NCBI GenBank assembly: GCA_964448295.1
Contig: CAYUVV010000004.1
Coordinates: forward strand, 945-64,944
Length of the DNA stretch: 64,000 bases
Reading direction: 5' to 3'
Source: an uncultured Candidatus Saccharibacteria bacterium
GTDB taxonomy: Bacteria; Patescibacteriota; Minisyncoccia; Phycocordibacterales; JACOZG01
In this document: one piece after another, positions 19,542 to 62,678 of the stretch
How positions within the stretch are numbered: position 1 is the stretch's first letter
Layout: the number at the start of each line of letters is the position of its first letter
Made by a program: the position numbers and the translations under genes
Notes under the pieces: generated by a model
What the model saw: the letters and a program-made list of their open reading frames with translations, nothing else
Told to the model about the DNA's origin: nothing
The model's database searches: none

Positions 19542-19922
19542 ATGATGGAAATAAATTGGCCGTTGTTTATAGATGTGATACTAAAAATTGGATCACTCGG
19601 AGGTTTGGCAAGTATTATTTGGAATATTTTTCTATATAAACAAAGCAAAAAATACAATAAGTGGGAAGCAGAAATGTTACTGAAACAACAACAGATTGAG
19701 TGGGAAAAAATGCAGAGACAGCACAGATCGGAATACGAGGATATAGAAGTATTACATGGTAAATTCAGCGGAGAGATGAGAAACTTAAATAATAAACACG
19801 CATGGGAAGAGCGAGCTTTTTTCAACAAAAGTGAGTACTTATCGAATCTTGCTGGTCATAAACCCACTATCTTTTTGAAAACCTCTTTTCTAAAAAGTAT
19901 ATGGCGAAGGATTTTTAGATGA
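19542..19922 (+). CDS. Hypothetical protein (N-terminal TM helix, charged coiled-coil tail) in a strongly AT-rich segment
   Basis: The ORF is 126 aa and starts immediately after the tRNA-Asn. Local GC is far below the window average, and the ORF may not be expressed. Confidence 0.3.
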   Translation: MMEINWPLFIDVILKIGSLGGLASIIWNIFLYKQSKKYNKWEAEMLLKQQQIEWEKMQRQHRSEYEDIEVLHGKFSGEMRNLNNKHAWEERAFFNKSEYLSNLAGHKPTIFLKTSFLKSIWRRIFR

Positions 19923-40416: not shown

Positions 40417-41793
40417 GTGTTTGAGAGAAAGAAGGAGGACGCTCTCGGCGTGACGATTGCTTTTCACGGCGGCGCGGCCGGTTCAGTAACAGGCGCCAAT
40501 TTCTTATGGTCAAACGGTGGGCAAAAAATCTTAATTGACTGCGGCTTGTTCCAAGGGAGCCAAGTAGCGGAAGAGCGCAACCGTGCGCCTTGGCCGTATG
40601 ATCCCAAAGTTATTGATGCTCTGCTAGTTACTCATGCCCACCTTGATCATATCGGGCGAATCCCTCGTTTGGTGCGCGATGGTTTCCGCGGCCCAATTTA
40701 TTCCACCGTGCCGACGAAAGCTCTAGCCAGCTTGAGCTTAACCGACAGTCTTGGTGTGTTGGAAAAAGAGGCGCGCCGCACCGGCGCGCCTCTTGTGTAT
40801 GAAGGGGCCGACGTGGAGCGGGCTCTTGGTCAATGGCAAACGGTCGAATATCGAACGCCGCTAAAGTTGGGCGAAACCACGGTTACTTTCTACGACGCCG
40901 GTCATATTTTGGGTTCGGCGATGATTGCGCTCGATTACCACGAGCACCGATTTCTGTTTACCGGCGATTTAGGCAACTCGCCCTCGCTTCTGCTTCGCGA
41001 GACGGAGACGGTGCCCGACGTTGACTACTTACTGATGGAGAGCGTTTATGGCGATCGTCCGCACGAAGGGCGCGTCGAAAGAGCGCAGATTCTTGAGGAC
41101 GCGATTGAGGAGACGATGAAGCGCAATGGCACGCTCTTGATTCCCGCTTTTTCCATCGAGCGGACGCAGGAGATCTTGATCGAGATCGAAAAAATGATGG
41201 AACAGGGCCGGATTCCAGCCGTGCCCGTCTTTCTCGATTCGCCGCTCGCGATTCAGGTGACGGCTTTGTACAAGGAATATGAAAATTTTTTGAACGAAGC
41301 GACGCGGCGAGAGAATCGTGTGCGCGACGGCATTTTCCATTTTCCCAATCTCAAGCAAACTTTCACCACCGAGGAGTCCAAAGCAATTGGAAGAGAAAGG
41401 AAGATCATTATCGCCGGGTCGGGGATGTCGAACGGGGGGCGGATCGTACACCACGAAAAACATTATTTGCCGGACCCGGCGAGCGCCTTGCTTTTAGTTG
41501 GCTACCAATCGGTCGGGAGTTTGGGACGCCAATTGCAGGACGGCGCGCGGACGGTTAGAATTATTGGCGAGACAGTGCCCGTTCGCGCGCGCATTCTTAC
41601 TTTGTCTGGTTATTCGGCGCACAAAGATTTGCCCGGGTTGATGGATTTTGCCGAGCGGCATCGCGGGCGATTAAAGCGAGTGATGGTGGCGATGGGAGAA
41701 ACAAAGTCGGCGCTGTTTCTCGTTCAACGCTTGCGCGATTATTTGGCGCTGGAGGCCGCGGCGCCAACCGAAGGTGAGATTTTGCAATTTTGA
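40417..41793 (+). CDS. MBL-fold beta-CASP ribonuclease (RNase J / CPSF-like family)
   Basis: HxHxDH is present as THAHLDHIG. The beta-CASP region and a C-terminal RNA-metabolising MBL domain follow. Confidence 0.7.
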   Translation: MFERKKEDALGVTIAFHGGAAGSVTGANFLWSNGGQKILIDCGLFQGSQVAEERNRAPWPYDPKVIDALLVTHAHLDHIGRIPRLVRDGFRGPIYSTVPTKALASLSLTDSLGVLEKEARRTGAPLVYEGADVERALGQWQTVEYRTPLKLGETTVTFYDAGHILGSAMIALDYHEHRFLFTGDLGNSPSLLLRETETVPDVDYLLMESVYGDRPHEGRVERAQILEDAIEETMKRNGTLLIPAFSIERTQEILIEIEKMMEQGRIPAVPVFLDSPLAIQVTALYKEYENFLNEATRRENRVRDGIFHFPNLKQTFTTEESKAIGRERKIIIAGSGMSNGGRIVHHEKHYLPDPASALLLVGYQSVGSLGRQLQDGARTVRIIGETVPVRARILTLSGYSAHKDLPGLMDFAERHRGRLKRVMVAMGETKSALFLVQRLRDYLALEAAAPTEGEILQF

Positions 41794-42404
41794 AAACTGA
41801 CGATTACAACAAAATAAAAATATGTGTTTCCGGCGCGGCCGAGACGGGTCATTGTGGTCCGCGGGCGCTCGAATTGGCGGAGGCGTTAGGACGCGAGATT
41901 GTCGGCCACGGGGCGGTCTTGATTACCGGCGCGACCACCGGTTTTCCTCTTTGGGCAGCCAAGGGGGCCAAAGAAGCCGGCGGCATCTCGATTGGTCTCT
42001 CGCCGGCGGCGAGCGAGGCCGAGCACCGCGAGGTGTATAACTTGCCGGTCGAATATCTCGATTTGATTATCTACACCGGCTTCGGCTATTCCGGCCGCAA
42101 TCTGCTTCTGACCCGCTCGTCGGACGCCGTGATTGTTGGTTGCGGTCGGGTGGGGACGGTGAACGAGTTTACCGTCGCTTTTGAAGACGGCAAACCGGTA
42201 GGTGTTTTGGAAGGAGAATGGTCGACGGACGAGCTCCTGCGGGAGATGATGGAGAAAGGCTGCCGCTCAAATGAGAAGGTCATTTTTGATCCCGATCCGG
42301 CCAAGCTGGTTGGGCGAGTGCTCGCTCTGGTAGAAAAAGAAAAAGCCCAGGAACACCGCTTTTACTGCAATCCCCCCGACCCCAAATTTAAGCGGGTGCT
42401 TTAG
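41790..42404 (+). CDS. LOG/TIGR00725-family Rossmann-fold (SLOG-type) nucleotide-binding protein; TTG start overlapping the upstream stop
   Basis: The pattern ICVSGAAETG...ITGATTGFPLWAAKGAKEAGG...IVGCGRVGTVNEF is typical of the LOG/DprA-like TIGR00725 group. Confidence 0.65.
   Translation: MKTDDYNKIKICVSGAAETGHCGPRALELAEALGREIVGHGAVLITGATTGFPLWAAKGAKEAGGISIGLSPAASEAEHREVYNLPVEYLDLIIYTGFGYSGRNLLLTRSSDAVIVGCGRVGTVNEFTVAFEDGKPVGVLEGEWSTDELLREMMEKGCRSNEKVIFDPDPAKLVGRVLALVEKEKAQEHRFYCNPPDPKFKRVL
42195..42403 (+). repeat. Direct repeat A (209 bp), equal to the 3' end of the LOG-like CDS up to the TA of its stop codon
   Basis: It is base-for-base identical to 43422-43630 at an offset of 1,227 bp, by my manual alignment. 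Confidence 0.9.
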
Positions 42405-42408
42405 CCAC

Positions 42409-42437
42409 TTGCTTTTTTCCAGCTGATATGTTATACT
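42409..42437 (+). promoter_or_regulatory. Sigma70-like promoter TTGCTT (42409-42414), 17-nt spacer, TATACT (42432-42437) for the cassette ORF
   Basis: Both hexamers are read directly and lie about 70 nt upstream of the ATG at 42511. A purine-rich AAAGAAAGGA sits 6 nt before the start. Confidence 0.5.
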
Positions 42438-42510
42438 GTCGCTGGAGCCAGATTTCTCTGGCAACTGGTTCGGCAGATTCCGGAAGCACATTGTAAAGAA
42501 AGGACAAACG

Positions 42511-43245
42511 ATGAACACTATCATCGACGCAGATGCGGCCAAATTGGCTAGTTTGCAAATCGACCTGCTGCAAAAAGTGCGGCAGGGTCATGTCACCCTG
42601 GGCCACCTCGAGTGGTTCACAGGACTCAGCAGGGATGCACGCGAAGCTCTGATGGTCGGCGAAAAGCCTGCCTCACAGCCCGCACCGTCCCCGGAATCCA
42701 CGGAGAAGTTCGCACTGCTCGTTGACCTCGGCATCATCACGGTGCCCGACGACTACGACCACGCGAGCCGGCTGAAGACGTTTGGTAAGCAGAACCGCAA
42801 AAAGCTCTATTACTACAACGACGACATCACCGACACGAACTTCCCGAACCCAACTCGGGTCCTGAAGCCCGGCGACAAATTACGGGTTCAGGCCTTTCAG
42901 CAAATCGTCGACGGCACGACCACATCGGAAGAACGTATGGCCCTCCTGGCCACGCAGAAAGCGGTTCATGTCGGCGCACAGGGCGCAAGCCTCGTGTTCG
43001 ACCAGAAGCGCGACCAACTGCCGAAAGGCAAATGGTATGCGTCCTTCGATGAGAAGGATCGTCTCTGGACCGATGCCCTCGGCCGCCACAGGGTGCCGTA
43101 CTTGAACGCCCTCTCGGACGGTGACTTCGGGTTCAGCCTCGGCGACTTCGAGCTCCTCTGGCCTGCCGCCCACGCGTTCCTCTGCTTACGCGACGTCGAG
43201 CAGTCCTTGGGTGCTCAGGCACCCAGATCGTCCTTTGGGTCTTAG
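42511..43245 (+). CDS. Unknown-function cargo protein. It has an N-terminal helical region, a Pro/Ser-rich linker and a C-terminal domain of about 170 aa with no recognisable family
   Basis: The complete ORF encodes 244 aa, with the RBS-like AAAGAAAGGA 6 nt upstream. Codon preference differs from the host (gac, atc, ttc, ctg and ctc are favoured). Confidence 0.6.
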   Translation: MNTIIDADAAKLASLQIDLLQKVRQGHVTLGHLEWFTGLSRDAREALMVGEKPASQPAPSPESTEKFALLVDLGIITVPDDYDHASRLKTFGKQNRKKLYYYNDDITDTNFPNPTRVLKPGDKLRVQAFQQIVDGTTTSEERMALLATQKAVHVGAQGASLVFDQKRDQLPKGKWYASFDEKDRLWTDALGRHRVPYLNALSDGDFGFSLGDFELLWPAAHAFLCLRDVEQSLGAQAPRSSFGS

Positions 43246-43253
43246 ACCCCTTG

Positions 43254-43286
43254 AGCCCTTGCTTCACCGCGAGGGCTCATTTTTTG
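43254..43286 (+). terminator. Rho-independent terminator of the cassette ORF
   Basis: The stem pairs GAGCCCT with AGGGCTC around an 11-nt loop, followed by ATTTTTTG. Confidence 0.65.
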
Positions 43287-43421
43287 TATAATAAGCATCA
43301 GAACTTAGATAGCGCGCGCGGCTACGGTTTCGTGCCATCAGTTCTCGTGTAAGGATTAACGAGTGGTCCACCGGGTATGCCTTGTGGACGGGTGTTGCCT
43401 TGCGCGAAAAAATCAAATAAG

Positions 43422-43631
43422 CCGGTAGGTGTTTTGGAAGGAGAATGGTCGACGGACGAGCTCCTGCGGGAGATGATGGAGAAAGGCTGCCGCTCAAATG
43501 AGAAGGTCATTTTTGATCCCGATCCGGCCAAGCTGGTTGGGCGAGTGCTCGCTCTGGTAGAAAAAGAAAAAGCCCAGGAACACCGCTTTTACTGCAATCC
43601 CCCCGACCCCAAATTTAAGCGGGTGCTTTAA
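43422..43631 (+). pseudogene. Direct repeat B: a duplicated 3' fragment (last 69 codons plus stop) of the LOG-like gene, not an independent gene
   Basis: It is 100% identical to 42195-42403. The ORF at 43377-43631 in the track merely extends this fragment upstream into cassette sequence. Confidence 0.85.
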
Positions 43632-43634
43632 GAT

Positions 43635-43979
43635 TTACTTCACCGCCGTGATGATTTGGTCGAAGATGGCCGGGTGGTGTTCGGCGAGCGTGGCGAGGAT
43701 TTTGCGGTCAAGTTCGATGTTTTGCTTTTTCAGCGCGCCCATAAAACGGTTGTAAGATAATCCGTGTGGCCGGACGGCGGCGTTGATTTTGATTTGCCAG
43801 AGTCGGCGGAAATCATTTTTTTTATCACGCCGGTGGGCAAAAGCGTGAACGCCGGCGTGGAGCACGGCCTCGCGCGCCGCGCGCTCTTTTTTGCTCCGGG
43901 CGAAGCGATAACCCTTCGCCAATCTTAACGTCGTGCGGCGTTTTTTTAGACTATGAACCCCCTTTTTAACTCGTGGCAT
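43635..43979 (-). CDS. rplT: 50S ribosomal protein L20
   Basis: The 114-aa product carries the L20 signature RVKKGVHSLKKRRTTLRLAKGYRFARSKKER. Confidence 0.9.
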   Translation of the reverse strand: MPRVKKGVHSLKKRRTTLRLAKGYRFARSKKERAAREAVLHAGVHAFAHRRDKKNDFRRLWQIKINAAVRPHGLSYNRFMGALKKQNIELDRKILATLAEHHPAIFDQIITAVK

Positions 43980-45489: not shown

Positions 45490-45831
45490 TCAATTTCTGG
45501 CCGTCAACTTATCTCTTACCCAGTCGTCTAGTTTTGGTCCGTAACAGGTCTCGATGGCCGCGGGTAAGCCAATCTCATTGGCGAGATCGGTGATATCCAC
45601 TACTGGTATCCCTTTCGCTTGGCGAATCACCACGTCTGCCATGCACCAATCGGTGATAACTAAATTGTCGTCCGATATCCCACAATGGAGTGTCAACCCC
45701 AAGCCAATACTGGGTTCGGAGAAGGTTTTAATAAAATCCGGTTTGAAAACCTTGCTCCAGATCGGATCGCCGAAAACAAGTCCAACACAAAAACAATTGA
45801 TTTGCGGGGGCATTGTTCCTAACTCGATCAT
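45490..45831 (-). CDS. Hypothetical small protein; the start is taken at the internal Met (MIELGT...), as the upstream part of the ORF is AT-rich
   Basis: It is an ORF of about 113 aa. I recognise no family for it. Confidence 0.35.
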   Translation of the reverse strand: MIELGTMPPQINCFCVGLVFGDPIWSKVFKPDFIKTFSEPSIGLGLTLHCGISDDNLVITDWCMADVVIRQAKGIPVVDITDLANEIGLPAAIETCYGPKLDDWVRDKLTARN

Positions 45832-45995
45832 CGTTTCTCTCCTTTTTGGGGTCCTTGAAATCTGCCTAGCATAGTAAACCTTTTGTTTAATTTTGTCAAA
45901 CTTTTTTGGTTTTAGATGATTGGGGATAAATATCGTTTTTTTGTGCCCAATATACTGTAAAATTTGGCTTGAGTTTATCAATTTATTAAGTATTT

Positions 45996-47120
45996 ATGAA
46001 ATTAAATAAAATTTTTGCGGTTTTTTTATCCGTCGCTTTGGTTCTCATCGGCGCGACGACGACCTATGGCCAAATTACGGGGTATGAGGTGGTTACCAAA
46101 AATTTCTCCGGCCCGGGTGGTTCGTCGGCGCAAGCCTCTTGCCCGGCTGGTAAAGTGGTGGTTGGCGGGGGTTGCGAACTGTATGCGACCACTGGTGGCG
46201 CGACCCTGAAGGATTCTTATCCATTTACCTCACCGACCTCGGTTGGCAATGGTTGGGCCTGCCGCTGGAGCAATCCGTCTAACGCCGCCGGCCGAACGGC
46301 CTACGCCATCTGCGCGGATGGAAGTAACATAGGCTCTGTTGGCCCATGTTTTGTGCCTTTGTGCCCCAACGGCAATACCATAGCGACGAATTGTTCTAAT
46401 TCTCCAAATAGTGACGATGGTATGCTGTGCGGCGGAAATCCCCCAACCTTGTGTCCCAACAGTCATACGGTTGCTACTAACTGTACTTTACCGCCAGGCA
46501 GTGATGATGACAGCGACGGTGCCGCCATTCCCACCATCATTTCTTCCAACCCGCCGAATGGGGCAATTATCGCCCAGAATACATCCGACGTCGTTAACGA
46601 GTTCGGTGTAACTTTTTCTCGCCCTCTTGATTCTTTGTCTGCCAAACAATTTACTGTCTCCAGCTCTGGTGCTAATAATTCAGTCTCCCTTGTGAGATGG
46701 GCTGTTGGCTCCAACTATGCGCTGTCTCTGTCGAACCCCTTGTCTCCGGGTGAAAGGATCACGATCAGTTTCGCGCCGTCTGGTCCGTTTGCCTGCCTCG
46801 GTTATCTCCCCGGCGATGTCAATCAATCCGGGACGACGAATGTGCAAGATCTGACGGCACTGAACAATTGTATTAACAGTCAAAACTGCCAGTTGTGGCA
46901 GGCCGATATTAACCGCGACGGGGCCGTTAACTCAAATGATATAACCACTCTGCTCGGATTGATGAACGGCAGTATTGGCGGCACCAAATGGCTGAACAAA
47001 ACCTTGCCTGCTTGCCCGGCTGGTTCGGTGGGTGTGGTTCCCATGCAAACGCAGACGGCCTCCGTCTTTCCGGCGCTCAACGGTTTTCTTAACGGTCTCC
47101 GCGGCGCATTGGGTCGGTAA
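45996..47120 (+). CDS. Secreted Cys-rich protein with two C-terminal dockerin-like (EF-hand-type) repeats
   Basis: It has a signal peptide and repeated CPNGNTIATNCSN / CPNSHTVATNCTL modules. The dockerin-type repeats read GDVNQSGTTNVQDLTALNNCI and ADINRDGAVNSNDITTLLGLM. Confidence 0.6.
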   Translation: MKLNKIFAVFLSVALVLIGATTTYGQITGYEVVTKNFSGPGGSSAQASCPAGKVVVGGGCELYATTGGATLKDSYPFTSPTSVGNGWACRWSNPSNAAGRTAYAICADGSNIGSVGPCFVPLCPNGNTIATNCSNSPNSDDGMLCGGNPPTLCPNSHTVATNCTLPPGSDDDSDGAAIPTIISSNPPNGAIIAQNTSDVVNEFGVTFSRPLDSLSAKQFTVSSSGANNSVSLVRWAVGSNYALSLSNPLSPGERITISFAPSGPFACLGYLPGDVNQSGTTNVQDLTALNNCINSQNCQLWQADINRDGAVNSNDITTLLGLMNGSIGGTKWLNKTLPACPAGSVGVVPMQTQTASVFPALNGFLNGLRGALGR

Positions 47121-53953: not shown

Positions 53954-55060
53954 ATGAAAAAAGTGCTTTTTTTTGGGCCAACATTTTACAATCTGTCTTT
54001 CGTTGATCCGGCGTTGAGAACCAAATTTTCTGGATTAAATAAAATCTGCGAGATTCACGTAATGGCTCGTGGTTTGGGTTGGAGGGCGCAAAAATATGGA
54101 GTTTTATTCTGGCTGACACCAAAAAAATATGGTTTTGCGTTTTGGCTAGCTGCCAGTTTTTTTCGGAGCTGGTTGATAATCGTTAGGAAAAAAATTGATG
54201 TTATCGTGGCCCAATCGCCCGCGTTTGATGGAATGATTGGGGTTTTTTTAAAAATTCTAACAGGCTGCCGTTTAGTAGTGGAAGTGCATGGCGACTGGAT
54301 CGAAAGTCCATTTTTATACCACAAAATCCTTTTTCCAAAATTTTTTAGATTACTGCTAATTTTAAGTGGCAAATTTTCTTTGCGACAGGCGGACAAAATT
54401 CGAACCATCTCACAGTTTACCGAAGATCTTGCCAACAAATATGGTGGTCGAGATAAGCCGAAATGTTGTTTCCCCACTTTTACCGATATCAGTAAATTTT
54501 TAGAGGGTGGTGTTTGTAATAATCTCGTCGGACTCAATATTTTATATGTAGGAGTTTTGTACCGCTTAAAGGGGGTACATTTTTTAATCCGGGCATTGAG
54601 CAGAGTGCGTCTTCGACACCCAGAAGTAAGTTTAAATATAATCGGTGACGGTCCGTATCGTTCGGAGTTAGAAAATTTAGTCAAAGAACTTAATTTGGGC
54701 GGTGTAAAATTTTTCGGGCAACTCCCATCAGACGAAGTTGTAAAACGAATGAGGGACTGCAGTGTTCTAGTTTTGCCTTCTTTGTCTGAAGGTCTTGGGC
54801 GAGTGTTAATAGAAGCGGCGGCGGTGGGCAAGCCAGTAGTTGGTAGTCGGGTTGGCGGCATTCCGGAGGTAATAGAAGATGGGCAAACTGGTTTTTTGTT
54901 TCCTCCGGGCGATGTGTCGGCCTTGGCCTGTAAATTGGAGTGGGTTTTTGATCATCCCAAGCAGGCTAAATTGATGGGAGAAAGGGGCAGGAAGTTAGTT
55001 GAAGAGCGCTTTTCCACTCAAGCGTATTTTCGATCTTTTAAGAACTTAATCGAATTTTAA
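53954..55060 (+). CDS. Glycosyltransferase family 4
   Basis: The C-domain reads EGLGRVLIEAAAVGKPVVGSRVGGIPEVIEDGQTGFLFPPGD. Confidence 0.8.
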   Translation: MKKVLFFGPTFYNLSFVDPALRTKFSGLNKICEIHVMARGLGWRAQKYGVLFWLTPKKYGFAFWLAASFFRSWLIIVRKKIDVIVAQSPAFDGMIGVFLKILTGCRLVVEVHGDWIESPFLYHKILFPKFFRLLLILSGKFSLRQADKIRTISQFTEDLANKYGGRDKPKCCFPTFTDISKFLEGGVCNNLVGLNILYVGVLYRLKGVHFLIRALSRVRLRHPEVSLNIIGDGPYRSELENLVKELNLGGVKFFGQLPSDEVVKRMRDCSVLVLPSLSEGLGRVLIEAAAVGKPVVGSRVGGIPEVIEDGQTGFLFPPGDVSALACKLEWVFDHPKQAKLMGERGRKLVEERFSTQAYFRSFKNLIEF

Positions 55061-55065
55061 TTTTT

Positions 55066-56004
55066 ATGAATCTTTTGATTTTAACCCAGGCTGTTGATAA
55101 GAAAAACCCTATTCTTGGTTTTTTTCATCGCTGGATAGAGGAGTTTTCCAAAAATTGCGAACATGTAATTGTGATTTGCTTGGAAAGCGGCGAGTTTGGC
55201 TTGCCAGCTAATGTGCGAGTTTTGTCTTTGGGTAAAGAAACCGGTTGTTCCCGACTTAAATATCTCTGGCGGTTTTATAAATATATACGGCAGGAGCGTC
55301 AAAACTATGACGTGGTGTTTGTGCACATGAACCAAGAATATGTACTTTTAGGCTGGAAATTTTGGAGACTCTGGGGAAAAAAAATTTGGCTTTGGCGCAA
55401 TCACGCCTATGGCAATTTTTGGACGAGATTAGCGGTGCGGTTATCAGATCGTGTGTTTTGCACTTCGCCCCAGTCTTTTACCGCTCAATTTAAAAAAACC
55501 GAATTGATGCCGGTTGGTATTGATACTGATTTTTTCTGCCCAGATTTAGCCGTTACCAAGAAGCCCCATTCGGTGCTTTTTTTGGGACGGATATCGCCTG
55601 TAAAACGAGCATTGGAGTTTGTTGAATGGTTTACTGGTTTAAGTAACGACTTTACTGCGACTATCGCTGGCGTTGTCATGACTAAAGATCGGGAATACGA
55701 ACGGGTTTTGAAACTCAAAATTAAAAAACTTAGGATTGAAAATCGAATAAAATTTTTTGGGGTACTTAGCCAACAAGAAGCGCGAACTCTGTATTGCTCG
55801 CATGAGCTTTACGTCAATTTAACCCCCGCCGGTAGCATGGATAAGACAATTCTGGAGGCGGCGGCTTGCCAGACTAGGGTTAAAGTTGAGAATTCACACC
55901 TTAAACATTTAGAATTGTTGGGCGGTGAAGATCTTAGGAGGTATGTGGTCGAAAATCACAGTTTAAAGAAGCTGGTCAAACGATTATGCTGTATCGTGGC
56001 ATAG
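55066..56004 (+). CDS. Glycosyltransferase-like protein (GT-B, divergent)
   Basis: The GT1/GT4-like N-domain is MNLLILTQAVDKKNPILGFFHRWIEEF. It is embedded in the glycosyltransferase cluster. Confidence 0.5.
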   Translation: MNLLILTQAVDKKNPILGFFHRWIEEFSKNCEHVIVICLESGEFGLPANVRVLSLGKETGCSRLKYLWRFYKYIRQERQNYDVVFVHMNQEYVLLGWKFWRLWGKKIWLWRNHAYGNFWTRLAVRLSDRVFCTSPQSFTAQFKKTELMPVGIDTDFFCPDLAVTKKPHSVLFLGRISPVKRALEFVEWFTGLSNDFTATIAGVVMTKDREYERVLKLKIKKLRIENRIKFFGVLSQQEARTLYCSHELYVNLTPAGSMDKTILEAAACQTRVKVENSHLKHLELLGGEDLRRYVVENHSLKKLVKRLCCIVA

Positions 56005-56795
56005 TATTTGTTTTTAAAGAGCTTGTTTGGTTTACGTGTCGGCTGTTGGCTCCATCTCTGGCCAATAAAGCGTGCATCCTTATGTATCACTCTGTGTCTG
56101 ACAGAAATAACGCATTTTTTACAGTTACTCTCGAAAATTTTGAGAGACAGCTAGCATGCCTGAAAAAGAGTTCAAAAAGGGTAGTGTTTCTTAGCGATTT
56201 AATCAAAATGATTATTGAGGGGGAATCGATTGGGGATTGTGTTGTGCTGACTTTCGATGATGGTTATCGCGACAATTATGAGATTGTTTTCCCCATGCTC
56301 AAAAAATATAATTTTAAGGCTTCTTTTTTTATACCAACCGGATATGTTGGGCTGACAATGAAAAACTCTGAGGGAATAGTTTTACCAGTTATGAACGCAA
56401 AAGAATTGATTAAGGTCGGCTCATCGGAATTTGTCGAATGCTTGCCGCATACCCATCGTCATATTGATTTGTCAAAAAAAACAATCGATGAGTCCATGAG
56501 GGACATAAATAATTCCTGGCTACTTATAAATAATTTGCGTATCAGATCTTCAAAAATCTTGGCTTACCCAAAAGGAAAATTTTCTAAAATTATTGCAGAG
56601 AGGTTGGCTCTTGCTGGGTGGATGGGGGCGGTTACCGTTTGCTCTGGACTGGTTTCTAGCAAATCACGTCTGTTCTATTTGCCACGAAATTCAGTCGACA
56701 AAAGTACCAGCCTAAACAAATTCAAATTTTATTTGTCTGGGGGGGTGGTTTTGTGGTTAAAATGTAAGTCATGGATATGGTTTGGCAGATATTAA
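55986..56795 (+). CDS. Polysaccharide deacetylase (NodB homology domain)
   Basis: The motif VVLTFDDGYRDNYEIVFPMLKKYNFKASFF is present, followed by a His-containing motif (LPHTHRHIDL). Confidence 0.75.
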   Translation: MLYRGIVFVFKELVWFTCRLLAPSLANKACILMYHSVSDRNNAFFTVTLENFERQLACLKKSSKRVVFLSDLIKMIIEGESIGDCVVLTFDDGYRDNYEIVFPMLKKYNFKASFFIPTGYVGLTMKNSEGIVLPVMNAKELIKVGSSEFVECLPHTHRHIDLSKKTIDESMRDINNSWLLINNLRIRSSKILAYPKGKFSKIIAERLALAGWMGAVTVCSGLVSSKSRLFYLPRNSVDKSTSLNKFKFYLSGGVVLWLKCKSWIWFGRY

Positions 56796-57403
56796 AAGGT
56801 AAAACGATTTATCGCGTTTTGTTTAACCGGCTCGTAGCCAAACATTGTTTTGGTTTATCCGGGGATGTGCTTGACTTGGCTGGTGGCACCAACCCTAGTT
56901 ACCGTGAATATCTCCCATTAAAAGTGAATTTAATCGTAACTGATTTAGTGGCTGCGTCTGGGGCTGGGCGTATTGATTTAAACAAGCCGTTGCAAATTGA
57001 TTCTGGCCGATATCGTTCCGTTCTATGTTTCAATGCCCTTTATATAGTGGAAAATATGGAAGGGGTTCTTCTGGAGATGAGACGGATTTTAGCGCCAGGC
57101 GGTAAGCTTTTTATTTCTATGCCTTTTATTTCTAATGAAATGCCTGAACCCCATGATTACCGACGTCTTACTAAGGAGGGGCTAGTAATCCTTTTTCGCC
57201 GAGCAGGCTTTACAAAATTTGAAATTATGCGTTTCGGGGAAAGATTTTCTTCGGCGGCATATTTACTCCACCCTTTCTTTTTGTGTAATCCGATTAGGCT
57301 TCTGGTTTATTGCGCTTCTCTTCTACTTGATCGCATGATTCCAAAAAAGATAAAAGAACTCTATCCTACTCCCTTAGGCTATTTTTGTGTGTTATCCTGC
57401 TGA
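56771..57403 (+). CDS. Class I SAM-dependent methyltransferase
   Basis: The motif I block LDLAGGTNPSYREY and a Methyltransf_11-like core are present. Confidence 0.6.
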   Translation: MDMVWQILKGKTIYRVLFNRLVAKHCFGLSGDVLDLAGGTNPSYREYLPLKVNLIVTDLVAASGAGRIDLNKPLQIDSGRYRSVLCFNALYIVENMEGVLLEMRRILAPGGKLFISMPFISNEMPEPHDYRRLTKEGLVILFRRAGFTKFEIMRFGERFSSAAYLLHPFFLCNPIRLLVYCASLLLDRMIPKKIKELYPTPLGYFCVLSC

Positions 57404-58062
57404 CTGCCATGTTGGGTAAAAGAGGTATTGAGCAGGTTTATGATTATCACCATACTCATGCTAGGAGGAAAAAGCACGTTATTTTTTCTGAAGCGCGCGG
57501 GGCTTTGCTGAGAGAACACGTTGGTTTGGGTAAGCGGGTTTTGGATATAGGTTGTCGAGATGGCGCACTGACAGCGTTATACTGTGAAGGTAACAACATT
57601 CTCGGTGTCGATATCGATAGCCGCGCCCTAGAAATCGCAGAACAAGACTTGTCCATTAATACCCTTCATCTTGATTTAAATGAATCTGATTGGAATTTGG
57701 ATCAAGGTGTTTTTGATCGGGTTGTGGCTGGTGAGATACTCGAGCATTTATATTATCCGGATAAAGTAATTGGTCGAGTCGCTAGTGTGCTGAAACCTGA
57801 TGGTAAATTTGTCGGCTCGGTGCCCAACGCTTTTAATATAAAAAATCGATTTCGGTTATTGTTGGGACAAAAGCAAAATACTCCCCTGTCTGACCCCACT
57901 CATATTAACCATTTTACAAGAGAAGAGTTAAGGAAGGCACTTCTCGTCCACTTTAAAAAGGTAGAAATTATTCCCATTGGTCGTTGGTCTAAGTTTGATT
58001 TTTTTTGGCCAGGAATGTTTTCTTTCAGTTTGTTTTTTGTTGCTCAAGAGAAACGATCATGA
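57385..58062 (+). CDS. Class I SAM-dependent methyltransferase
   Basis: Motif I is VLDIGCRDGALT and the acidic motif is ILGVDID. Motif IV-like VAGEILEHL follows. Confidence 0.7.
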   Translation: MCVILLTAMLGKRGIEQVYDYHHTHARRKKHVIFSEARGALLREHVGLGKRVLDIGCRDGALTALYCEGNNILGVDIDSRALEIAEQDLSINTLHLDLNESDWNLDQGVFDRVVAGEILEHLYYPDKVIGRVASVLKPDGKFVGSVPNAFNIKNRFRLLLGQKQNTPLSDPTHINHFTREELRKALLVHFKKVEIIPIGRWSKFDFFWPGMFSFSLFFVAQEKRS

Positions 58063-59135
58063 AGGTGGGTATTTTTATGCATCCTTACGGAGAGTCGAAG
58101 CCAAGTGGTTTGGGGGTGTTTGGATCAAATTTGGTGAGCCGCATAATCAAGGAGGATGCGGATACCGAGTATGTGCTTTTGGTTAGAGAAGCTCCCAGGG
58201 TCAAGCCTGTTTTTGCTCTTGGTTGTCGGGAGATCGTTTTAAATAAAAGCTTTGCTCGACTTAGTTCCAGGGAAATTCGGTCATACGGGCTTGACCGCTG
58301 CCTGTTTTTAACGCCGGTCTTGCCGCTTTTGGCAAAACTTCCTCCGACGATCGTGGTCGTTCATGATTTGGCGTATCGAACTGTTCCATCGGAATCGTGG
58401 ATTGATTTTTTGTATAAACTAGTTTTTCACTGGATCTATTTTTTCTCTACACACAAGGCGTCTGTTGTTGTCGCTGTATCCGATGCCACCAAGCAGGATG
58501 CGGTTAAGGCTTGGCGATTAAAAGCAGATAAAATAAAAGTTATATACAACGGTCCAAGCGGTATACACAAACTCCCTCCAAAACTTGTTCAAGTTAAGCG
58601 ACCATACTTTCTGTTTGTCGGCGTGTTTAAGCCTCGGAAAAATGTGCTAAAAATTGTTGAAGAATTTGGGCGTTTTAAAAAAAAAATAAGATCGGACTTT
58701 AATTTGGTTCTGGTCGGAGCGGCAAATGGCCGGTATGCCAAGAGAGTCCGTTCTCTTATAAAGGAAGCCGGTCTTACCGACTCAGTCTTTTTATTGGGTT
58801 ATAGAAGCGAGGAAGAGCTTTCTTATTTATATCGTAACGGCTATGCTTTTTTGTATCCCAGTATGGGCGAGGGTTTTGGGGTAACAGTTTTGGATGCTCT
58901 GTCGTGTGGTCTTCCTTGTGTTGTCTCACGAATCCCAGTTTTTCAGGAATTGTATAAGGGGGTTGCGTTGGTGGTAGATGAAAATTCTTTTGCAGCGAAC
59001 ATGGAACGTTTAGCTACTGATACCAATTTGCGCAATAAACTGGCAGCGACTTCGCAAAAATTTTCTTTTAATTTTTCTTGGAGTAAATCAGCGCGTCAGA
59101 TGATCGAGCTGATTCATCGGGACTATGGACATTAA
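58005..59135 (+). CDS. Glycosyltransferase family 4 (the start is probably MKVGIFMHPY, near 58059)
   Basis: The C-domain reads PSMGEGFGVTVLDALSCGLPCVVSRIPVFQE. Confidence 0.75.
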   Translation: MARNVFFQFVFCCSRETIMKVGIFMHPYGESKPSGLGVFGSNLVSRIIKEDADTEYVLLVREAPRVKPVFALGCREIVLNKSFARLSSREIRSYGLDRCLFLTPVLPLLAKLPPTIVVVHDLAYRTVPSESWIDFLYKLVFHWIYFFSTHKASVVVAVSDATKQDAVKAWRLKADKIKVIYNGPSGIHKLPPKLVQVKRPYFLFVGVFKPRKNVLKIVEEFGRFKKKIRSDFNLVLVGAANGRYAKRVRSLIKEAGLTDSVFLLGYRSEEELSYLYRNGYAFLYPSMGEGFGVTVLDALSCGLPCVVSRIPVFQELYKGVALVVDENSFAANMERLATDTNLRNKLAATSQKFSFNFSWSKSARQMIELIHRDYGH

Positions 59136-60285
59136 AAACAAAAGGATTTGTTTTTTCCTCTCGTCGTTTCGTGCTGGCGGTGGCGAGAAAGTTATGGTGG
59201 AGTTGGCTAATGCTTTCGCCGGGCGAGGTTATGATACCGACTTGGTGGTAATCAAGCCAATAGGCGAGTATCGTCGGTGTGTTTCTAAGGCGGTGAATGT
59301 GGTGTCGGTCGATGGCGGAAGAATAATTTTAAGTTTGCCGCGCATGATTGCGTACATGCGTCGTCGACGCCCCAACGTGATTATTGGTTTAGATGAGTTT
59401 ACTCACCTTATCGCTCTTATTAGCAAGTTTGTGGCAAGAACCAAAACGAAAATTTTTCTACGCGTAGGAAATATTTATTCGATATTATATGAAAGACATC
59501 GACAAGAGGGTCGAATGGTTATCCCAGCAATTTCAAAATTGATCTACAAATATGCCGATCACGTTATTGCTAATTCTCGCGGGGTAGCCGACGACCTAGT
59601 GAAAACGGTCAGTCTTACTAAACCACCGATTGTAATCGGCAACCCTAAACCTCTTAAGGTTATTGAGCAAAAATCTGGTCAATTTGTTGATCATCCTTGG
59701 TTTATAAATAAAACCAAGCCAATTATTGTTGGTGTGGGGCGACTAAGGGCGCAAAAAGATTATCCGACCCTGATTCGTGCATTTGCCCGCCTAGTAAAAG
59801 AGTTACCAGCGGTGTTGGTAATAATTGGTTGCGGCCGTGAAGAAAAAATTATCAAGAAAACAATTATTGAATGCGGCGTTGAAAACAGCGTTTGGCTTGC
59901 AGGATATCACGATAACCCATATGCCCTTGTTGCCCGGTCTGATGTTTTTGTTCAACCTTCATTGTGGGAAGGACTACCCAACGCCCTTTTGGAAGCAATG
60001 GCGGTGGGGGTGGCTGTGGTTTCTTCTGATTGCGAAGCTGGACCAAGAGAAATATTGGCCCCCGATACTGATATTCACAAACATCTTTTGCCTAATATAG
60101 ACTCTTATTATAAAGCTGAGTACGGGGTGTTATTTCCTGTAGGTGATGAACGGGCGCTGTTTGGGGCACTCAAGGAGCTTGTTGTTAACCAGCAATTAAG
60201 GGCGGAATATTCCAAGAAGGGGCGACTGAGGGTTTCTGGTTTTGATACAGAGATTATTGTCGATAAGTACGAGGCGTTATTCTAG
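59125..60285 (+). CDS. Glycosyltransferase family 4
   Basis: The C-domain reads PSLWEGLPNALLEAMAVGVAVVSSDCEAGPREIL. Confidence 0.8.
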   Translation: MDIKNKRICFFLSSFRAGGGEKVMVELANAFAGRGYDTDLVVIKPIGEYRRCVSKAVNVVSVDGGRIILSLPRMIAYMRRRRPNVIIGLDEFTHLIALISKFVARTKTKIFLRVGNIYSILYERHRQEGRMVIPAISKLIYKYADHVIANSRGVADDLVKTVSLTKPPIVIGNPKPLKVIEQKSGQFVDHPWFINKTKPIIVGVGRLRAQKDYPTLIRAFARLVKELPAVLVIIGCGREEKIIKKTIIECGVENSVWLAGYHDNPYALVARSDVFVQPSLWEGLPNALLEAMAVGVAVVSSDCEAGPREILAPDTDIHKHLLPNIDSYYKAEYGVLFPVGDERALFGALKELVVNQQLRAEYSKKGRLRVSGFDTEIIVDKYEALF

Positions 60286-60291
60286 CTTATT

Positions 60292-61395
60292 ATGAAGTTG
60301 TTGTATGCCACCTCAATAATTTACCCCTCATTATATGCCAACCGGAAACAAGTTCTGTCAATGGCGCGAGAATGGACAAGGAAATTAGGGATCAATTTTA
60401 TTTTAGGCTGCTCTAATATTGATGTTAGTTTGGGGGACATCAATTATCTAAATTTTAGAGGTAGTAGGCGTAGCCCGATTTTGGCTTGGAGGTACGTTTT
60501 TTTTGCTCGAACGAATGGCATAACTCATGTGTATTCTCGAGAGGAGAAACTTTTGGGTTGTATGATGCTTATTGATAGGTTTTTACCAGGCCGAAAATTA
60601 TTGTTTGCTTACGAGGCGCACTCGATTCCGCTCCGCCACTCTTGTTTATATTTATTTATGATTCGGTTTGTTTCTCTGATAGTAGTGGTTACAGAAAGAA
60701 TGAGAGCTGAATTTATCAAAATGGGGATTAGCCCGCAAAAAATTCGAACGGAGCATGACGCGGTGGATTTGAATTTGTTTAGTTTTAAAACGTCGAAGCG
60801 AGAGGTGCGGGAAGAGCTAGCTCTGTGCCCGAATGATTGGGTCGTAGGCTATTTTGGTCGATTCCAGACAATGGGAATGGAAAAAGGAGTTCCGGAAACT
60901 TTGTTAGCGGTAAAAAGACTTACGTCTGCTGGCAAGCGCGTTTTTTTTATTGGTGTGGGTCTCAGAGACAGAGAGTTGCCACATTATCAAAAGATTGCGA
61001 AAGAATTGGGCGTATTTGACCACGTTAGATTGATTGGTTATTTGCCCCAAGAGGAAGTTCCCCGATATCAGTGTGCCTGCAACGCTTTGTTGCTTTTGTT
61101 TCCCAGAACTGCCCATTTTGAAAAATACATGTCTCCATTAAAGATGTTTGAATACATGGCCTCAGGAATTCCTATCATTGCAACAAGATTACCTTCTATA
61201 GAAGAGGTCCTGGATAACAAATCGGCATATTTTGTTGATTCTCTTGGCCCAGAATGTGTTGCCGAAGCAATAATTCGAGTTTGTCAAAATCCGGCCGAAT
61301 CTTTTTTAAAAGCGCGCAAAGCTAGGGAAAGGGTTACGTATTATACTTGGAGTAAGAGAGTTGAGCGAATTACCCATTACCTTAACAATCTATGA
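60292..61395 (+). CDS. Glycosyltransferase family 4
   Basis: A GT-B C-domain is present with an E-x7-E-like segment (LKMFEYMASGIPIIATRLPSIEEVL). Confidence 0.65.
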   Translation: MKLLYATSIIYPSLYANRKQVLSMAREWTRKLGINFILGCSNIDVSLGDINYLNFRGSRRSPILAWRYVFFARTNGITHVYSREEKLLGCMMLIDRFLPGRKLLFAYEAHSIPLRHSCLYLFMIRFVSLIVVVTERMRAEFIKMGISPQKIRTEHDAVDLNLFSFKTSKREVREELALCPNDWVVGYFGRFQTMGMEKGVPETLLAVKRLTSAGKRVFFIGVGLRDRELPHYQKIAKELGVFDHVRLIGYLPQEEVPRYQCACNALLLLFPRTAHFEKYMSPLKMFEYMASGIPIIATRLPSIEEVLDNKSAYFVDSLGPECVAEAIIRVCQNPAESFLKARKARERVTYYTWSKRVERITHYLNNL

Positions 61396-62678
61396 ATTTG
61401 CGCACTCTCTTTGCCCGTCCAGTGCTGGGTCTGTGTTCTTTAATTTCAGTCTTGTTGTTGGGTAGACATCGGAGGCGGGTTGATGATCCAAAAAAGGTAG
61501 TGATCTACCAGTTGGCGAAACTTGGCGACATGGTTTGCACCACGCCAGTATTTAGAGCGATCAAGAATAATTATCCGGAATCAAAAGTAATCGTTGTTGG
61601 TAATAGTCAAAATGAATTATTGCTTGCGGGCAACAAGGATGTTGATTTCTACATTAAATTTGTAGGTATTTGGTCCACAATACGAATCATCCGTAAATAT
61701 CGAGCTGATTTTGGAATTATCACGTCTCCTAATATTGTCGGGCTCTCGGTTTTAGTTCTTGGGGGTGTTCGCGCTATAGCCGGTTTTAGTATTGTAAGCG
61801 GTAGCGTTTACGAAGACATTTGGTACAAATCAATGAGGCCGTTTTTCCATGTTTTCCCATACCATTTTGGAGAATATGTGCCCGGGGCGTATTTGTCGTT
61901 GCTGAGGCCGCTGGGCATAAACTCAACCAATACCAAAAAATATCTAACTTATTCCGAGGAGGCCGATCAGCGTATAAACAAAATTTTCTTTGATATGGGC
62001 ATTTTGAACGGGATTCAGAAGGTGGCAATTCTTCCTGGTGTAGGAAATAAGATTAAGCGTTGGCCGGTAGAGCGGTTTGCTGAACTAGCCTTGAAAATTG
62101 TGAGGCATTGCAACGCGCAGGTTTTGATTTTTGGTGGCAAACGCGATGCTGATGAGGTGTTGGCTTTGCGTTCGTGCCTCCAGCACAGAAAAAATATTTT
62201 TTACATAGACACAGAAATGACCATTGATGAACTCAAGTGCCTTATTGCACATCTGGATTTGTTGATCTCTGTTGATTCAGGACCTATTTATATCGCTGAA
62301 TCTTTTGGGGTGGCTACTGTTGACATAGTTGGTCCCGTTGATGAAAGGGAGCAACCGCCAATTGGCCGGTATCATCGGGTAATTGTTCCGTCTCGTAAGC
62401 AAGCCGAAGTTCATATTATGGATACTAGAACATTCGATATAAATGAGGTTACTCGTCAAATTAACTCTATTTCCGTTCGGGCTGTTTATAAGGAGGTCGT
62501 TGCCCTACTGCGCATTTTGCCGCGATTTAAAGAGAACAAACAACAGAACAGAATCAAAAATTTGACTTACAATAATAGCTATCACACCCCCCATGATACC
62601 AATGCTGGGAATCATGCTTACCAAAAGAATAATTTTAACAACCGGCGAGATAATCAGAAAAATACTACTTTGTTTTAG
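61392..62678 (+). CDS. Glycosyltransferase family 9 (heptosyltransferase-like), with a low-complexity Asn/Gln-rich C-terminal tail
   Basis: The N-terminus VVIYQLAKLGDMVCTTPVFRAIKNNYPESKVIVVG is typical of GT9 ADP-heptose transferases. Confidence 0.65.
   Translation: MNLRTLFARPVLGLCSLISVLLLGRHRRRVDDPKKVVIYQLAKLGDMVCTTPVFRAIKNNYPESKVIVVGNSQNELLLAGNKDVDFYIKFVGIWSTIRIIRKYRADFGIITSPNIVGLSVLVLGGVRAIAGFSIVSGSVYEDIWYKSMRPFFHVFPYHFGEYVPGAYLSLLRPLGINSTNTKKYLTYSEEADQRINKIFFDMGILNGIQKVAILPGVGNKIKRWPVERFAELALKIVRHCNAQVLIFGGKRDADEVLALRSCLQHRKNIFYIDTEMTIDELKCLIAHLDLLISVDSGPIYIAESFGVATVDIVGPVDEREQPPIGRYHRVIVPSRKQAEVHIMDTRTFDINEVTRQINSISVRAVYKEVVALLRILPRFKENKQQNRIKNLTYNNSYHTPHDTNAGNHAYQKNNFNNRRDNQKNTTLF

Follow-up and report, generated by a model that had tools for sequence, protein, structure and literature searches.

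A likely target half of a Patescibacteria diversity-generating retroelement between duplicated ends of a SLOG gene

Diversity-generating retroelements (DGRs) are hypermutation systems common in Patescibacteria, and one DGR clade (clade 2), with targets that have no recognised domain, is restricted to this group (Roux et al. 2021, PMC8144416). A DGR comprises a variable repeat (VR) in a target gene, a template repeat (TR), Avd and a reverse transcriptase (RT), and the VR is altered by A-to-N mutagenesis (PMC11661182). Remote targets, whose VR does not adjoin the RT, are also mentioned (PMC8144416). Here, we analyse a locus in a stretch of 64,000 nucleotides (the window) from contig CAYUVV010000004.1 of an uncultured Candidatus Saccharibacteria bacterium (assembly GCA_964448295.1). 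At the convergent junction between a SLOG gene and rplT lies an inserted unit (U) of about 1 kb, which carries a single gene and is enclosed by two copies of the SLOG gene's 3' end (R1 and R2). The gene encodes a DGR variable (target) protein, and U is most likely the target half of a Patescibacteria DGR that has neither the spacer nor the TR, bAvd and RT of the complete element.

We compared R1 and R2 base by base and found them identical in 209 of 209 nucleotides, at an offset of 1,227 nt. A repeat finder gives 212 nt because it runs over a single mismatch at 42194/43421, and no further 20-mer of the repeat is found elsewhere in the window. R1 ends at the TA of the SLOG stop codon, R2 ends in TAA at a distance of 3 nt from the rplT stop codon, and the original TAA-GAT-rplT junction lies downstream of R2. 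The identity, the offset and the ends of the copies agree with a first-pass annotation of this DNA, made from the sequence alone, which had described the locus as a self-contained cassette carrying a single foreign gene.

The 244-aa product of this gene has no match in Pfam, PHROGs, NCBIfam or PADLOC. It belongs to a family of at least 480 homologues in Patescibacteria, which share 60–79% identity and occur in unrelated genomic contexts. An AlphaFold model calculated from the single sequence was not usable (predicted local distance difference test (pLDDT) score of 34) and was replaced by an AlphaFold2 model based on an alignment of 52 sequences, which has a pLDDT of 87.4. The latter predicts a C-type lectin fold that holds the VR, and TvpA and Mtd are among its structural matches. 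The gene differs from its family at 5 of 86 conserved positions; since its relatives differ at 0–10 of them, it looks intact, and pseudogenisation was rejected. The gene is probably also expressed.

The composition of the gene is indeed distinct from that of its neighbours, as had been stated before: its GC content at third codon positions (GC3, 0.75) and its cytosine content at the same positions (C3, 0.45) are the highest among the 48 long open reading frames (ORFs) in the window, the other ORFs having a GC3 of 0.35–0.65. The high GC content and the bias towards NNC codons are, however, a trait of the family. In the related locus L002 (related loci are denoted by L and a number), the target gene has 55–58% GC within host DNA of 38–44% GC. 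Composition therefore does not date the transfer, and we dropped compositional foreignness as a dating argument, given that the family stays at 55–58% GC in a host of about 40% GC. A scan of viral contigs with the family profile gave no relatives and hence no evidence for a phage vector.

The nature of the gene is revealed by its relatives. In L002, the 3' end of the target gene (5190–5311) recurs 477 nt downstream (5667–5788) with 86% identity, and all 17 of the 17 mismatches are located at adenines of the downstream copy, which is the TR. The TR is followed by bAvd (PF22296, E-value of 7.8e-12) and an RT (RVT_1, E-value of 1.8e-24). L007, L012, L013 and L014 have the same VR/TR pair, again of 122 nt, with a spacing of 447–533 nt, and mismatches coincide with TR adenines in 12 of 12, 15 of 18, 8 of 9 and 11 of 13 cases, respectively.

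The window has no TR of its own, and we compared its VR with the TRs of these five relatives, which is an indirect test for adenine sites. The VR differs at 14 of 25 columns with an invariant adenine and at 3 of 56 other invariant columns (Fisher p = 1e-6), and this excess indicates that it has undergone adenine mutagenesis. For a conserved block at the 3' end of the VR, a candidate end of the initiation of mutagenic homing (IMH)-like type, the window has the sequence TTCCTCTGCTTACGCGAC, whereas most relatives have TTCCTCTGCTTCTGCGAC; the two differ by 2 nt. With adenine-directed variation in its VR, a C-type lectin fold and relatives that are accompanied by TR, bAvd and RT, the cargo is a DGR variable protein and not an anonymous gene. 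The remainder of a DGR is absent from the window: tblastn and blastn gave no second copy of the VR (a TR) and no paralogue of the target gene, and tblastn gave no Avd and, with the RT of L002 as query, no RT (best E-value of 5).

Two of the related loci contain additional repeats. In L005, a second repeat pair of 112 nt (6006–6117 and 6705–6816, 77% identity) follows the target gene at a distance of about 2 kb and is possibly another VR/TR pair. In L006, a 21-nt tandem array (5924–6224) is found just downstream of the target gene.

The non-coding parts of U also belong to a DGR. Conservation across loci starts at the -35 box, and U aligns with L002 from this box to ...AAATCAAATAAG. The site proposed earlier as the promoter of the target gene, TTGCTT-N17-TATACT, is present, and relatives have TTGACA in the alignment column of TTGCTT, although a consensus promoter scan gave the site no score. 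In the window, L002, L005 and L007–L010, the 5' untranslated region (UTR) of the target gene is apparently at least as conserved as the coding sequence. Predicted structure in it amounts to no more than two short hairpins, and this UTR may represent a regulatory RNA or a protein-binding element.

Downstream of the VR, the hairpin and its T-run are found as annotated before and could serve as a terminator and/or as the target-recognition hairpin of the DGR. The promoter-like site at the hairpin has a TATAAT box that is conserved in TR-bearing loci. What had been taken as a 135-nt tail is instead the 5' leader of the TR transcript. This leader is common to the window, L002 (5410–5545), L007 (5780–5905), L011 and L028–L033, and compensatory base-pair changes support both of its hairpins. 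It may be a part of the DGR RNA that is needed for cDNA synthesis. Also, in this DGR lineage the leader carries an invariant ...GAAAAAATCAAATAAGTCGGTGCGATG motif. An Rfam scan of 41.5–44.5 kb assigned neither the target 5' UTR nor the TR leader to a family; its sole match was a sub-threshold one to suhB/mmgR on the terminator hairpin.

A scan of metagenomes with the last 16 nt of the leader gave six further loci. In these six as well as in L002 and L007 (eight of eight other loci), ...AAATCAAATAAG is followed by TCGGTGCGATGTG..., the continuation toward the TR starting with TCGGTGCGATG..., and the TR is reached about 115 nt later. The window alone departs from this pattern: after AAG, it reads CCGGTAGG..., which is the SLOG gene from position 42195 onward. 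At this right joint, the SLOG sequence ...CAAACCGGT and the leader sequence ...TAAGTCGGT have the patch AAnnCGGT in common, and the joint looks like a microhomology-type illegitimate joint that cut the DGR in two. Since the leader is severed before the TR, U is a fragment of a larger element and not the self-contained unit suggested by the first-pass annotation. The features of the locus are compiled in Table 1.

Table 1. Coordinates of the features at the SLOG/rplT junction (positions in the window)
Feature	Coordinates	Strand	Remarks
Host SLOG cluster-4 / LOG-like (TIGR00725-like) gene	41790..42404	+	204 aa, intact, stop codon TAG; PF18306, E-value 4e-35
Repeat copy 1 (R1)	42195..42403	+	Final 209 nt of the SLOG gene, through TA of the stop codon
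Inserted unit U	42404..43421	+	1,018 nt, 56.6% GC; most likely 5' half of a Patescibacteria DGR
Putative target-gene promoter	42409..42437	+	TTGCTT-N17-TATACT; read from the sequence
Conserved 5' UTR	42445..42510	+	Shine-Dalgarno-like AAAGGA; strong conservation among 10 loci
DGR variable (target) protein gene	42511..43245	+	244 aa; homologues (see text) and fold model
Variable repeat (VR)	43073..43194	+	Aligns with the VR/TR pairs of L002, L007, L012, L013 and L014
Hairpin	43252..43285	+	11 pairs, 6-nt loop, followed by T6; downstream of the VR; kept in 8 of 10 loci
Promoter-like site for the TR transcript	43263..43292	+	TTCACC-18-TATAAT; 10 of 12 match
Truncated 5' leader of the TR RNA	43293..43421	+	129 nt, two conserved hairpins; previously annotated as tail
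Chimeric 84-aa ORF	43377..43631	+	Leader plus C-terminal 69 aa of SLOG; gene call on the NCBI contig
Repeat copy 2 (R2)	43422..43630	+	Duplicate of the SLOG 3' end, fused to the leader at AAG/CCGGT
rplT (L20)	43635..43979	-	PF00453, E-value 3.5e-35; first gene of the convergent infC-rpmI-rplT operon, untouched

The first-pass annotation had predicted that related genomes would show an empty site with the SLOG stop codon abutting that of rplT, and we found this arrangement in four relatives: L024/L025, which are two Vogelbacteria-type assemblies, and L026/L027. In these, a beta-CASP nuclease gene and the SLOG gene are followed by a convergent rplT-(rpmI)-infC cluster, the SLOG and rplT stop codons overlap by a few bases, and the SLOG proteins are 70–73% identical to that of the window. 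Since U is missing from all four, it is an insertion relative to the ancestral arrangement. The SLOG gene is part of a conserved housekeeping synteny (SecY-Adk-MetAP-NDK-betaCASP-SLOG-rplT in L024–L027). Its product has 7,920 close homologues in a homology search and matches TIGR00725 with an E-value of 4e-24, which is under the cut-off of that model.

The closest relative of the SLOG gene (88%), L023 (GCA_964461325, CAYWTW010000018), is unusable as an empty site, as an IS200-like fragment and a rearrangement are found at the same junction. At 5640–6632 of this locus, the SLOG stop codon is followed by an N-terminal fragment of an IS200-like TnpA, which is fused in frame to a dockerin-type ORF that is 42% identical to window positions 46509–46913; rplT-rpmI-infC and UDG are absent from the SLOG junction. 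Either the same junction was independently hit or rearranged in L023, or the contig is chimeric. No IS200-like gene is present in the 64-kb window.

Two independent assemblies contain the novel junctions of U. A Logan contig of 1,078 bp from SRR15237813 consists of the unique part of U, flanked on either side by exactly 30 nt of repeat sequence, which is what would be expected from a k=31 graph with branch points at the borders of the repeat. A 78,329-nt NCBI contig encodes the 204-aa SLOG protein as well as the 84-aa ORF in the second repeat copy. With both junctions (R-end/U and U-end/R-start) present in each assembly, a physical link exists between U and SLOG sequence at either end, and the junctions are real even if the assembly had resolved a loop in the way considered below.

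The duplication is a practical source of artefacts, as it breaks short-read assemblies and causes the SLOG protein to be filed under the 84-aa chimeric ORF. In the protein collection, the 204-aa SLOG protein is represented by this ORF as the head of its cluster, and this artefact of the duplication masked the identical SLOG entry when homologues were searched for. A look-up of the 204-aa protein by exact sequence gave no record, and the protein exists only on the same NCBI contig.

On balance, we favour with moderate confidence the explanation that the 209-bp duplication arose as a side effect of the illegitimate recombination that inserted or truncated the DGR module. The analysis directly shows what the parts are, where the truncation lies, that the site is empty in relatives and that RT and TR are absent within 64 kb; the order of events and the recombination mechanism are what we infer. 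Two routes can be envisaged. In route A, the integration of a complete cassette would have duplicated a longer stretch of the SLOG region, and a microhomology deletion would subsequently have taken out the spacer, TR, Avd and RT as well as the proximal portion of the second copy of SLOG. In route B, a single homology-anchored illegitimate recombination or template switch would have joined the leader to SLOG sequence upstream of the anchor. The duplication leaves the SLOG gene intact. The VR in the window is either frozen or still subject to diversification in trans, by a DGR at another place in the genome. The locus is composed of known parts and is a rearrangement scar rather than a novel type of mobile or defence element.

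Several points weigh against this explanation. The microhomology (4 nt + 2 nt) was deduced from the relatives in place of the donor sequence and could be a coincidence. The explanation does not account for the left joint (R1/U, 5 nt upstream of the -35 box), and no intermediate of the two-step route survives. An exact 209-bp duplication would be equally expected from a single crossover of a circle bearing R (the repeat), and short-read graphs cannot separate an integrated R-U-R from an empty chromosome plus an R-U circle. An RT and a TR may also lie outside the 64-kb window.

What happened to other copies of the module is informative here. Single-gene copies without an RT are common (L003/L004, L034 and L035/L036), with no RVT gene within 6–7 kb. 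L003/L004 is located between peptidase S8 and SIMPL, and L034 between valS and a DEAD helicase; including DUF4015, the neighbours of the cargo family are unrelated genes. The right ends of orphan copies are found directly after the hairpin in L008, approximately 20 nt further in L005 and L006, after the TATAAT box in L009, and approximately 110 nt into the leader in L011, compared to 129 nt in the window. These differing end points are what would be expected if a DGR that spreads horizontally had been truncated, or inserted illegitimately, several times independently, and not of a unit with defined ends. A duplication of the neighbouring host gene was not found at L002, L003 or the twelve genome loci L005–L016, and the duplication in the window is a one-off event.

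These observations bear on the model put forward in the first-pass annotation, a Campbell-type integration, in which a small circle carrying U and a captured SLOG 3' end (R) would have entered by a single homologous crossover in R and could be excised again. The identical repeats, the intact host gene and the original R2/rplT junction correspond exactly to the topology of a single crossover, the site is empty in L024–L027, and the k=31 graph is compatible with a circle. We nevertheless regard this model as unlikely. Target-derived direct repeats do flank U, over exactly 209 nt, but a unit with the same ends and flanking repeats did not recur at other sites among the loci examined, where no such duplication is seen at L002, L003 or L005–L016 and the orphan end points differ. 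Rather than being a defined unit, U is a piece cut from a larger element. It has neither an integrase nor a replication or transfer function: the cargo has no integrase or recombinase match in Pfam, PHROG, NCBIfam or PADLOC, and the sole ORF in U and R2 with homologues elsewhere is that of the variable protein, the 84-aa ORF repeating the SLOG C-terminus. In this respect, the earlier statement that no integrase or transposase accompanies the unit was correct. Finally, making the circle would need the same illegitimate joint between leader and SLOG.

A further alternative, to which we assign a small probability, is that the arrangement is a product of assembly. An empty chromosome (A-R-B) and an R-U loop, be it a circle, a tandem array or a strain variant, would have been traversed once to give A-R-U-R-B. 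The breaks in the independent k=31 assembly coincide exactly with the two borders of the repeat, and since the 209-bp repeat exceeds usual k-mers and approaches the length of short reads, the continuity of the locus rests on heuristics for loop resolution. Both novel junctions are nonetheless found in two independent assemblies, and a 1.2-kb circle without a replication function is unlikely to persist. The biology would in any case be the same, namely a truncated DGR module that has recombined with SLOG.

R2 directly follows the TR-RNA promoter and leader and takes up the region where relatives have their spacer and TR. This brings up yet another scenario, in which R2 is a newborn TR, the SLOG 3' end (R1) is the future VR, and an RT acts in trans. 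The TR of L002 begins 477 nt after the start of its VR, and the equivalent point of the window falls inside R2; also, like a VR, R1 forms the 3' end of a gene. Such a nascent target capture, if it were true, would bear on how DGRs gain TR/VR pairs and new targets. We consider it very improbable. R1 and R2 agree at all 53 adenines, and no RT or Avd is present in the 64 kb. R1 has neither an IMH-like end nor a hairpin as found after VRs, the SLOG protein does not have a C-type lectin fold, and the sequence that follows the TR in relatives is absent, with antisense rplT present after R2 instead.

The suggestion of the first-pass annotation that the cargo is functionally tied to the neighbouring SLOG nucleotide-binding gene in a conflict or anti-defence system can practically be dismissed, for although some SLOG-family proteins occur in conflict systems and the cargo looks horizontally acquired, neither protein matches PADLOC, the SLOG gene with its thousands of close homologues stands in housekeeping synteny, and no adjacency of SLOG and cargo recurs in about 20 loci, in which the neighbours of the cargo are unrelated.

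If the duplication is indeed a by-product of illegitimate recombination, the locus provides a concrete and datable example of how RT-less DGR targets arise and scatter in Patescibacteria via truncation at illegitimate joints. Additionally, the comparison documents two conserved non-coding elements of this DGR lineage, the target 5' UTR and the TR leader, neither of which is in Rfam.

Other parts of the window also deviate in composition. Nine co-directional genes at 53954–62678 have a GC3 of 0.36–0.42, compared to 0.55–0.65 in the rest of the window, and encode GT4 and GT9 glycosyltransferases, a polysaccharide deacetylase and methyltransferases; they probably form a horizontally acquired low-GC island for glycan synthesis. 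Two ORFs, at 45490–45981 (minus strand, GC3 0.49) and 19542–19922 (plus strand, GC3 0.35), lie in locally low-GC DNA. Neither has a match in Pfam, and the former, which is situated between UDG and the gene of a Big_5/dockerin surface protein, has no match in PADLOC either.

Elements of the Campbell type, such as prophages and islands at tRNA or transfer-messenger RNA genes, carry the 3' end of their target gene. The window resembles them in the direct repeats of the target 3' end, the intact host gene and the empty site in relatives. Unlike in such elements, the repeat is 209 bp of protein-coding sequence and not a short att core, an integrase is missing, the insert is a 1-kb fragment of another element, and the pattern is not recurrent.

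Homology-facilitated illegitimate recombination and microhomology template switching, during uptake or replication of DNA, are candidate mechanisms here. The window resembles such events in having a joint at the short imperfect microhomology AAnnCGGT, foreign DNA beside a homologous anchor and a local duplication, although they more often delete than duplicate recipient DNA. A literature search on duplications arising from homology-facilitated illegitimate recombination returned nothing relevant.

The cargo itself is best compared with DGR targets such as Mtd of Bordetella phage, TvpA of Treponema and those of clade 2. It is like them in having a C-terminal VR, a C-type lectin fold, adenine-directed variation of the VR, a hairpin downstream of the VR and relatives with TR, bAvd and RT, and it likewise has no recognisable N-terminal domain, as described for targets of the candidate phyla radiation (PMC8144416). 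Unlike complete DGRs, the window copy is not accompanied by a TR, Avd or RT anywhere in the 64 kb, and its TR leader is fused to a fragment of a host gene. It stands alone among housekeeping genes, as do L003, L034 and L035, and in this it resembles the remote DGR targets. In contrast to these, however, the window retains a piece of the TR-transcript leader, which shows that this copy derives from a complete cassette by truncation.

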